DNA of 64,000 nt, taken from Tubiluchus corallicola. Its lineage: Eukaryota; Animalia; Priapulida. Where the stretch lies: positions 737,214 through 801,213 of the forward strand of contig JAQGDQ010000033.1 of NCBI GenBank assembly GCA_030141605.1, read 5' to 3'. The position numbers and the translations under genes are program-made. The notes under the pieces are model-generated. The model was not told the origin of the DNA, ran no database searches, and saw nothing but the letters and a program-made list of their open reading frames with translations. This document shows, one piece after another, positions 22,001 through 41,293 of this stretch; the stretch's first letter is position 1; each line of letters begins with the position of its first letter.

Positions 22001-25000
22001 CATTTACGACAACGAACCGCTTTTAACTGTTTCTACGTACTATGGAATGATTGACAGGCAGGCAGACAGACAAACAAACTCAAGCAACTGATCATGATAC
22101 CTGTTCGGCTATGTCGGCGGCAAAAAACTAGCCATGTGTCTTAAATACGTGTGTACATGAAAGTAGGGTTACTTACTTTCCTCTTAAGATAGCTATAAGC
22201 AGCTTCTTATAATCATCGTTGAACGATTTTGACTCAATGGCTTCTTCCAATGATTTCTTGTGCATTTCCTTGTAGGCTTCTTGTACCTCAACCAAATCAA
22301 TCTGCAAGATGTCAACGTTCAGCAAAGATTTTGTCATGTGTATGATCTTCCTTTTGTTTATTATGCATACAAAAGGTACAGACTATGTTAACATAAACAA
22401 AAAACACACATGTCCTTAGTAATCAAAGAAAACTAACTACATACCTCAGACCTCGTTACTGCGGCCCTGATTAACATGGTATCCGTGTTTATTGAATCGT
22501 GGGTCTTCTCGCTGTAATATTTTACAGGCGATTCAGAAAAGGCAGCTGAAATAAAAGTATTAAATGAAGAAATGAAGTAATATAAACCCAAATATTTGTA
22601 GTTTGCAGTTTAGTACTTTCAATAATTGGCCTATTTACATCTAAGATGGAGTCTACATAAATTGCATATATTACACTCAAATCTTAAATAGAAATAAATA
22701 GATTGTTGTGTTTGAGGAACAACGTGCTTCATACCTAGCGCATTGAATGTCTTTTTTGAATCATCGTCGAATGCATCACTTTTTTGAATGTCTTTAATAA
22801 GATGTGTTCCATATTTCTGCAATAAACATAAATCATGGGTATACACATATGCATGCTCTACCTAAACGAGACAGACGACAGACGGAGCAAAATACGAAAT
22901 TAACGTATACAACTATTTTGGTCGTAACGTTAAAAACGTGTCTGCTTCAGTGGTACTGTATATTACTGCTGTTTTTCTTATCTAACTTATTTAACATTCA
23001 TACAAATATGCTAGCTACTACGTTTCAGATATAAAATCCAAAAGCGGTTTTGGAATCAGATATACACGAAACTGCATAATTGCAATCAAAGAAAAACGTC
23101 TCTTTTTAAACAAAATAAGAGAAAACGACAAGAAGCATAACTATACCTTTTTGTAAATGATTTGTGTGGCCCTTATGTGTGAACAGCTGCTTCTCAAAAA
23201 GAAATTTGTCACGCTAGTTGAGCCACTTTTATGTATATTCTGAAAGTAGACGTAGAAAGTCTGCAACTATTATTCTGAGTTAAATAAAACAAAAGTACGA
23301 GCACTTGATGACACTTATACATAACATGCCATCATTGACTGCATAATAATAATAATAATGATGATGATGATGATGATGATGATGATGATGATGATGATGA
23401 TGATGATGATGATGATGATGATGATGATGATGATGATGATGATGATGATGATGATGATGATGATGATGATAATAATAATAATAATAATAATAATAATAAT
23501 AATAATAATAATTTATTATTTGTAGAGCATCACATCAGAGATCTCGATGGGCTTCACATTTAAAAAGTTAAAATTTACAATTACATACACAGTCATTATA
23601 AAATTAATCATTCTTAAAATCACAAAAGTATATTAATTGTAAATAATTCTAAGCTTATAAGATTTTAAAATTCATCGCAAAATTAAATAATGTACAAATA
23701 AAACTACGATCCATAATGCTGCTTAAAAAGTTGTGCTTTTAAGTGTTTTTTAAAGTTTGTAATGATGGTAGTTGGCGCATAGTTAACGATTCCACAAGCG
23801 TGGAGCAATAAAGCAAAGACACGGCTCTGTGAAGGATCAGTTGCTGCGCGAGTACGAGTTGGAACACCATCAGTAGCACCGTATGCAGAAGTAAAAGTCA
23901 GACAAGTATGTTGCGCATTGACCATGCTAAATTTTATAAATAAATACTATAATTTTGAATTCAGTGCGCTTGTAAAAAGGTACCAATGCAAGTGACAAAG
24001 AACTGGTGTGATATGCTCGTGCGGGCGAGTTTGTGTAATGAGTCGTGCTGCCGTATTATGTAAAGTCTGTAGACGATTTCTAAGATAATTCAGCTGAAGG
24101 TCATGCAAAGACAAATTTGGCTGAAGATCATGCAAAAGACTATTGCAGTAGTCTAAGTGAGATGTAACGAATGCATGGATTAGAGATTTAACTATGGTGC
24201 GGCTAAGAATATTACGAATGCGGTAAATGCGATAAAGAGCATAAGATACTTTCTTAACAATTTGTGAAACGTAAATAATAGGAATGCCATGCTCATCAAG
24301 ATAAAAACCCAAATCCTTAACAGTTTCGGAAGATGCAACTTAGTCCTCCCCAGCTTTAAAGGTTTCTAGGTAATGAAACTCACGAACTTTTGAGTGAATA
24401 TGAATTACTTCAGTTTTAGGCCTACCGTCATTTAAAATTAGTTTATTGGCTACCATACAAGAGCGGATGTCATTTACATGGTTTTCTACATTCGTTTGTG
24501 ATGAAACATTCTTTTTACAAACAAGATGAAGTTGCATATCATCAGCATAGAACATAAAATCAAGACCACAATTTGCTATTATATCTTCAGTAAAGCATAA
24601 AAAGAAAAGGACCCAACACACTACCCTGTTGTACTCCACAGGGGAGGCAAACTGTGTCACTATTAAACTTGAAGTTTATACAAACACTTTGGGATCTACC
24701 AACAACATACGATTTGAATCAGAATAAAGCCAATGATGTGATGCCACATGGCCCACATCTATATTCTAATCACTATAACAAAATTTCATAGTCTGCGCTA
24801 TCAAAAGCTGAAGACAGATCCAGAAGAGTCGATATAACTTCCTCATGATTGTCCAAAGCTAACATATCTTAACATAAGATATCGTTATGCACCTTTAGCA
24901 ATGCATGCATATACGCTTACAGTAATGCAAAGTTGATACCTTTGCAAGCATATCTGCATCTGACTTTGCCTTCTTTTGATTTATACTCTGATTTTTGTCT

Positions 25001-41293: not shown

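Follow-up and report, generated by a model that had tools for sequence, protein, structure and literature searches.

An annexin gene with two IQ motifs and a likely CFAP97-type half-domain in the priapulid Tubiluchus corallicola

Does a single gene in the priapulid Tubiluchus corallicola place a ciliary CFAP97-type element and two IQ motifs in front of an annexin? The locus that raises this question lies on the minus strand of a 64,000-nucleotide stretch of contig JAQGDQ010000033.1 (the whole of the DNA analyzed, hereafter the window), a eukaryotic, intron-rich region with a GC content of ~34% whose genes are annexins, a ZP-domain gene, BAF and an LRR gene. A preliminary description, made from the sequence alone, had proposed that ten phase-matched exons of ~355 aa splice directly into an annexin core, and the peptides it quoted are found on the minus strand where it had placed them.

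In our gene model, 18 exons form a single open frame from e2 (beginning at 37235) to a stop at 22173, and all 17 introns are GT-AG. Counted from e2 onward, the protein consists of an N-terminus of 338 aa (e2 to e10) and an annexin core of 316 aa (a1 to a9). Phase matching thus holds for e2-e10 and a1-a9; the part of the proposal that does not stand is its first exon, whose 60-nt form is out of phase. A codon model for which other exons in the window served as the training set gave positive scores for every exon from e2 to e10 (0.13-0.63 bits per codon), and the combined scores of the modeled exons range from 17 to 57. The splice matrices of this exon-score run include the exons themselves, and a separate ranking of splice sites used independent matrices.

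An annexin core fused to two IQ motifs

The core is encoded by nine minus-strand exons (a1, 26709-26613; a2, 26420-26326; a3, 25909-25705; a4, 25415-25336; a5, 25008-24940; a6, 23239-23147; a7, 22816-22735; a8, 22545-22445; a9, 22301-22173, ending with the stop at 22173) and comprises four repeats of ~70 aa. When the 18 exon translations were scanned against Pfam one by one, three of the nine core exons exceeded the Annexin cut-off (PF00191), one fell below it and five had no match. The matches above cut-off fall in repeats 1, 2 and 4, and the exons of repeat 3 are without a match. In PDB searches with two core exons, every match listed was an annexin or an annexin fusion, the closest matches of the core being annexins A6, A7 and A8 and Hydra-type annexin XII. 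Furthermore, core residues 8-315 align at 31% identity with a second, divergent annexin in the window. By these sequence comparisons (Pfam, PDB and the paralogue alignment), the core is a member of the annexin family.

The paralogue, ten exons on the minus strand from 10094 to ~3550, lies 12 kb downstream. It is an ordinary annexin that keeps the GT loop only in repeat 4 and whose head is only a few residues long, suggesting that a single copy within a local annexin cluster likely acquired the long head. Between the two annexins sits an apparently intronless ZP-domain gene on the plus strand (16879-18159), with Pfam matches to VERL_C, cuticlin and ZP; the encoded protein starts with a signal-like stretch and has a membrane helix at its C-terminal end.

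The type II Ca2+ site of annexins follows the pattern G-x-G-T-38x-D/E (PMC4863580). A near-canonical example occurs only in repeat 2, with Ala in place of Thr and a Glu 38 residues on. The Ca2+ loop is missing in three of the four repeats, and type II sites therefore do not recur across the core. Accepted annexins can also lose Ca2+ sites (PMC4863580), so this loss weakens a claim of Ca2+ binding and leaves annexin ancestry intact.

Immediately upstream of the core, e9 (27919..28143, minus strand, 75 aa) contains a first IQ motif and a K/E-rich spacer, and e10 (27136..27246, minus strand, 37 aa), which starts with an ATG, contains a second. Both motifs, as called in the preliminary description, lie above the Pfam gathering cut-off for IQ (PF00612), at 27.3 bits for e9 and 30.7 bits for e10 relative to a cut-off of 20.3. 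They are predicted to bind calmodulin or a related EF-hand protein. The closest PDB match of the second motif is the flagellar radial spoke protein RSP23, which reflects generic IQ likeness.

Transcript alignments, covering positions 24800-30000 with runs X1 and X2, support this arrangement at the RNA level. A 452-nt contig from run X2, a related sample that is ~91% identical, aligns in four pieces over 416 letters with 36 differences. It skips 672, 426 and 192 nt at predicted GT-AG introns (junctions 27919-27246, 27136-26709 and 26613-26420), and thereby joins e9 (from 28052) to e10, a1 and a2; the shorter flank at these joints measures 74-111 letters. The second of these junctions, which the preliminary description had put forward for checking, is thus spliced in one X2 contig. 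The spliced joints speak for an RNA origin, the support being a single contig from a single run whose RNA status was guessed by the tool. The contig starts at about the end of the first IQ motif, and its 36 unaligned letters appear by eye to be a diverged, in-register continuation of e9; with them, the transcript evidence extends up to 28088. Together, the Pfam identities and the spliced contig establish the IQ-annexin fusion.

The same contig indicates which parts of the protein are conserved. Of its 36 differences, we listed the 19 that lie away from the ends of the aligned pieces. Within e10, a1 and a2, six of seven listed changed codons are synonymous; in the e9 spacer only two of ten are, the other eight being non-synonymous. 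This bias suggests that the second IQ motif and the core are constrained and that the spacer is not. A separate contig from run X1, covering the first IQ exon (27416-28429), has a depth of 162, compared with ~3-14 for its neighbors in that run.

The predicted join across a 5.3-kb intron

Whether the exons further upstream belong to the same gene depends on a single predicted splice. These exons, all on the minus strand, include three short Pro/basic exons (e4, 36744-36697; e5, 36490-36428; e6, 36361-36299) and two that encode a charged linker (e7, 35149-35006; e8, 33672-33487), with coding scores of 30 bits for e7 and 31 bits for e8. The linker of e7 and e8 is highly charged and carries three SRRS motifs. 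The splice sites of e5 are weak, and read-through of this exon meets a stop.

We consider it probable that e8 is spliced to e9 from 33487 to 28143, across a 5,343-nt intron (28144..33486, minus strand). Because e9 lacks a Met and is closely preceded by an in-frame stop, it requires a phase-0 coding exon before it. The e8 donor is in phase 0, and only 2.2% of the 320 GT sites in the intron equal it in strength; the coding score, at 0.50 bits per codon in e8, drops to 0.04 beyond this donor. The best false internal exon within the intron scores 18, compared with 52 for e8 and 57 for e9. With the independent splice matrices, the e9 acceptor is weak. A search of sequencing runs for words of 33480-37240 listed none as RNA, and X2 shared almost none of these words, which carries no weight at its degree of divergence.

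Part of this intron is repetitive, which also speaks for the join: in a tblastx comparison with the remainder of the window, matches cover 1,259 of the 5,343 nt, some pieces being short and weak. The marked parts are mainly two LINE-type remnants, similar to one in the annexin's own 1.7-kb intron. LINE-type remnants in the window lie at 45800-48000, 23720-24900, 30600-31950 and 12100-13100 (the last by eye), with reverse-transcriptase Pfam matches at 47276-47785 and 24343-24675; their CR1/L2 label was assigned by eye.

The intron also has three times the length of the gene's next longest and contains three AATAAA hexamers, and if e5 or e8 is read through, the frame closes to proteins of 136 and 285 aa, respectively. 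These features favor an arrangement of two genes, in which an IQ-IQ-annexin gene starting inside the intron would follow a CFAP97D-like gene that is short or in decay and runs from e2 to e5 or e8. A candidate start is the ATG at 32231 in a putative exon, 32327-32133, that has an open frame in phase 0/0 and a poor acceptor. Its phase-0 donor is very strong, at a level reached by 0.3% of the intron's 320 GT sites, and initiation at this ATG would yield an open 461-aa IQ-IQ-annexin. However, the coding score of this exon is weak (5.4 bits over 33 codons), it has no Pfam or Atlas family match and its Atlas recognition is low. It may just as well be an additional internal exon, with which the fusion stays in frame at 759 aa. 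Moreover, the e8 donor is strong exactly where the coding signal stops, whereas a last exon needs no donor, and the 66-nt gap between e5 and e6 seems too short for the end of one gene and the promoter of another. We accordingly regard two separate genes as unlikely, and below consider the N-terminus as part of a single gene joined from e8 to e9.

The CFAP97-like helix and the 5′ end of the gene

The CFAP97 assignment concerns e2 (37127..37235, minus strand, 36 aa). Searched against 177,635 PDB sequences, e2 has a sole match, the 161-aa KIAA1430 homologue 9e2g_4R (E 0.012). The alignment is best at residues 102-126 of this chain and weaker at 53-76; the position of the best alignment identifies e2 as the second helix. 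Beyond the e2 match, the 9e2g_4R stretch runs by eye without a gap into e3 (36899..36964, minus strand, 22 aa), which would extend the CFAP97-like stretch, its register being judged by eye; e3 alone has no match in Pfam or PDB. Consistent with the PDB match, the top ESM Atlas cluster for e2 (score 0.93, 213 of 256 features shared, recognition 2676) carries the CFAP97 family (PF13879) on 22% of its members, and the ten best family-bearing hits all agree, a level of agreement that a third of shuffled proteins also reach.

Profile searches gave a different result. Scanned singly, e2, e3 and the e2 open frame had no match to PF13879 at E values up to 10, a single-exon form of the check that the preliminary description had named as refuting, the lack of a KIAA1430/CFAP97 HMM match on exons 36899-37235. 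Its CFAP97 call is supported by the PDB match and the Atlas cluster and fails at the Pfam HMM on single exons. Searching 1.84 billion representatives with e2 by phmmer gave five matches, four TPR proteins and one tandem-repeat protein, which we judged to be noise, and no CFAP97 member. Described CFAP97/Hemingway domains are 71-96 aa long and comprise two helices (PMC3982993). Here, scans upstream by motif, by e2 peptide and by exon found no first half, leaving the second helix in place of the whole two-helix domain, much as the earlier description had said in assigning only the C-terminal part. Overall, e2 appears to be a CFAP97-type helix, a call that is supported but sub-threshold, and a CFAP97 half-domain likely stands at the front of the protein.

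Half a CFAP97 domain might fail to bind, which counts against a tether. The fusion could also be real with a CFAP97 half that is vestigial or non-axonemal; in ciliated or germ cells, the protein would then be a cytoplasmic scaffold or a calmodulin reservoir anchored to the membrane. The presence of the second helix only fits this reading, as does the fast-changing e9 spacer with its eight of ten listed changed codons non-synonymous. Drosophila Hemingway-GFP, moreover, is reported in the cell body and not at basal bodies, which counts against an axonemal tether (PMC3982993), and AnxA11, itself a tether, offers a precedent for a non-ciliary one (PMC10882027). On the other hand, the splice sites of e2 and e3 are intact, their frame is open and they score positively as coding, and the top PDB match of the second IQ motif is a flagellar protein, though by generic IQ likeness. 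We hold a vestigial half to be unlikely as well. That the likeness of e2 to CFAP97 arose by chance, the N-terminus being a charged, helical, lineage-specific head, is highly improbable: the single-exon Pfam blank, the five unrelated repeat proteins among 1.84 billion representatives and the 22% family share would fit it, yet the family had been named beforehand and was still the only one matched in the PDB, with all ten family-bearing Atlas hits in agreement at high feature sharing and recognition.

The start of the gene is less clear than its body. A candidate first exon, uncertain in itself, lies at 41175..41293 on the minus strand. Its 119-nt form (donor 41175) matches the phase of e2, keeps the frame open and gives an N-terminus of 378 aa and a total of 694 aa, and the 19 codons that it adds score -0.04 bits per codon. 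With the 60-nt form (41293-41234, donor 41234), the frame closes after 29 codons unless an alternative bridging exon at 39125..39177 (minus strand, also uncertain) links it to e2, in which case the frame is open at a total of 692 aa; this bridging candidate scores no better than the range of background candidates. The candidate first exon (39 aa) had no match in Pfam or PDB, and neither model, 119 nt or 60 nt with 39177-39125, is convincing.

A relaxed RFX X-box-like motif is found at 41295-41309, immediately before the candidate start ATG; across the window, ten relaxed X-boxes occur where 9.35 are expected, and strict sites number zero. Further upstream, the BAF gene (plus strand, ~49100-49540) stands head to head with the annexin gene and bounds its 5′ end, unless the genes are nested. 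Beyond it, an LRR gene with a long low-complexity tail occupies ~54700-61500 and beyond on the minus strand; it appears to resemble PPP1R37, its listed Pfam matches being to LRR only. Just upstream of e2 lies a diverged minisatellite (37675-38528), followed by an ATT microsatellite near 39520-39690; the two repeats occupy the stretch in which one would expect the CFAP97 domain's missing first half.

A possible doublet-membrane tether and its relation to known systems

Considering the locus as a whole, we tentatively favor one protein of ~690 aa in which a CFAP97-type helix and the IQ-annexin would act as a calmodulin-controlled tether between the outer surface of ciliary or sperm doublets and the membrane. 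We infer the tether role, and the reading as a single-gene fusion presupposes the predicted e8-e9 join. In such a protein, the CFAP97-type helix would dock on the doublet wall, like CFAP97D1, and the 178-aa charged linker would bridge the gap. The IQ motifs would hold calmodulin or a related EF-hand protein, providing the Ca2+ sensing that the core has mostly lost, and the annexin disc would bind acidic lipids through its one remaining site together with basic residues. The long form may be accompanied by shorter IQ-annexin isoforms. The fuller proposal, that exon shuffling brought together a CFAP97 helix, two IQ motifs and an annexin whose Ca2+ sensing was handed to calmodulin, making a single-chain, calmodulin-gated tether from doublet to ciliary membrane, is more doubtful.

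Several published observations bear on this proposal. CFAP97D1 is counted among the external proteins of sperm doublets (PMC13406575), where it is found with the EF-hand-named EFCAB3 and TSSK6 (PMC13066092), and both the axoneme and fertility are affected when it is lost (PMC7444823). Annexin N-termini exit on the cytosolic face, the other face of the disc binding membrane (PMC10882027). A Nematostella apical-organ gene set includes annexins and a separate KIAA1430 gene, and in the sea urchin, annexin expression is seen in ciliary bands (PMC4300403). In diplomonads, annexins label outer doublets (PMC4863580).

If correct, an axonemal address would for the first time be built into an animal annexin, and the protein would offer a molecular candidate for the links between doublets and membrane in motile cilia. 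The axoneme-membrane link in animal motile cilia is poorly defined, and an outer-doublet protein fused to an annexin would name two partners at once. It also raises the question of whether free annexins and CFAP97 proteins, which occur together in ciliated sea anemone tissue (PMC4300403), cooperate elsewhere. Should the CFAP97 part not be joined, IQ motifs combined with mostly lost Ca2+ loops would still represent a new mode of annexin regulation.

The fusion is known from one lineage. Among the papers listed by full-text searches, drawn mostly from outside subscription journals, no title or opening of an abstract describes an IQ- or CFAP97-annexin fusion. Homologue searches gave 83 candidates for e9 (none at E 0.01), 33 for annexin exon a3 (none at E 0.001) and one for the e2 region (none at E 10); because searches of this type also missed ordinary annexins, these blanks say little about orthologues. 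A metagenome scan with a3 returned five loci in 442 stretches, all of them one annexin exon of another organism, and the DNA around these five loci had no IQ or e2 match.

Among known systems, the TSSK6-CFAP97D1-EFCAB3 assembly of the mammalian sperm doublet likewise pairs a CFAP97-type protein with an EF-hand protein (PMC13066092). There, however, the components are separate proteins that include a kinase rather than an annexin, and the available text of that source describes no membrane link (PMC13066092). Diplomonad alpha-14 giardin and Spironucleus annexins 3 and 12 are protist annexins of group E, mostly with short heads and without fused axonemal or IQ modules; like the proposed protein, they bind lipid and lie beside outer doublets (PMC4863580). 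Relative to the CFAP97/CFAP97D1/Hemingway/KIAA1430 family (PF13879; 9e2g_4R), whose described members in the literature searched carry neither IQ motifs nor an annexin, e2 matches the second helix, including its spacing to the KPxY motif, and the first helix was not found here. Finally, the gene resembles annexins (PF00191, invertebrate group B) in its 316-aa four-repeat core and in having a unique N-terminal head, and the heads of AnxA1 and AnxA2 bind S100 proteins, which are of the EF-hand type (PMC10882027). It differs from them in that only repeat 2 retains a site, of the form G-x-G-[T>A]-38x-E, and in a head of ~340-380 aa that carries two Pfam IQ motifs and the CFAP97-like helix.
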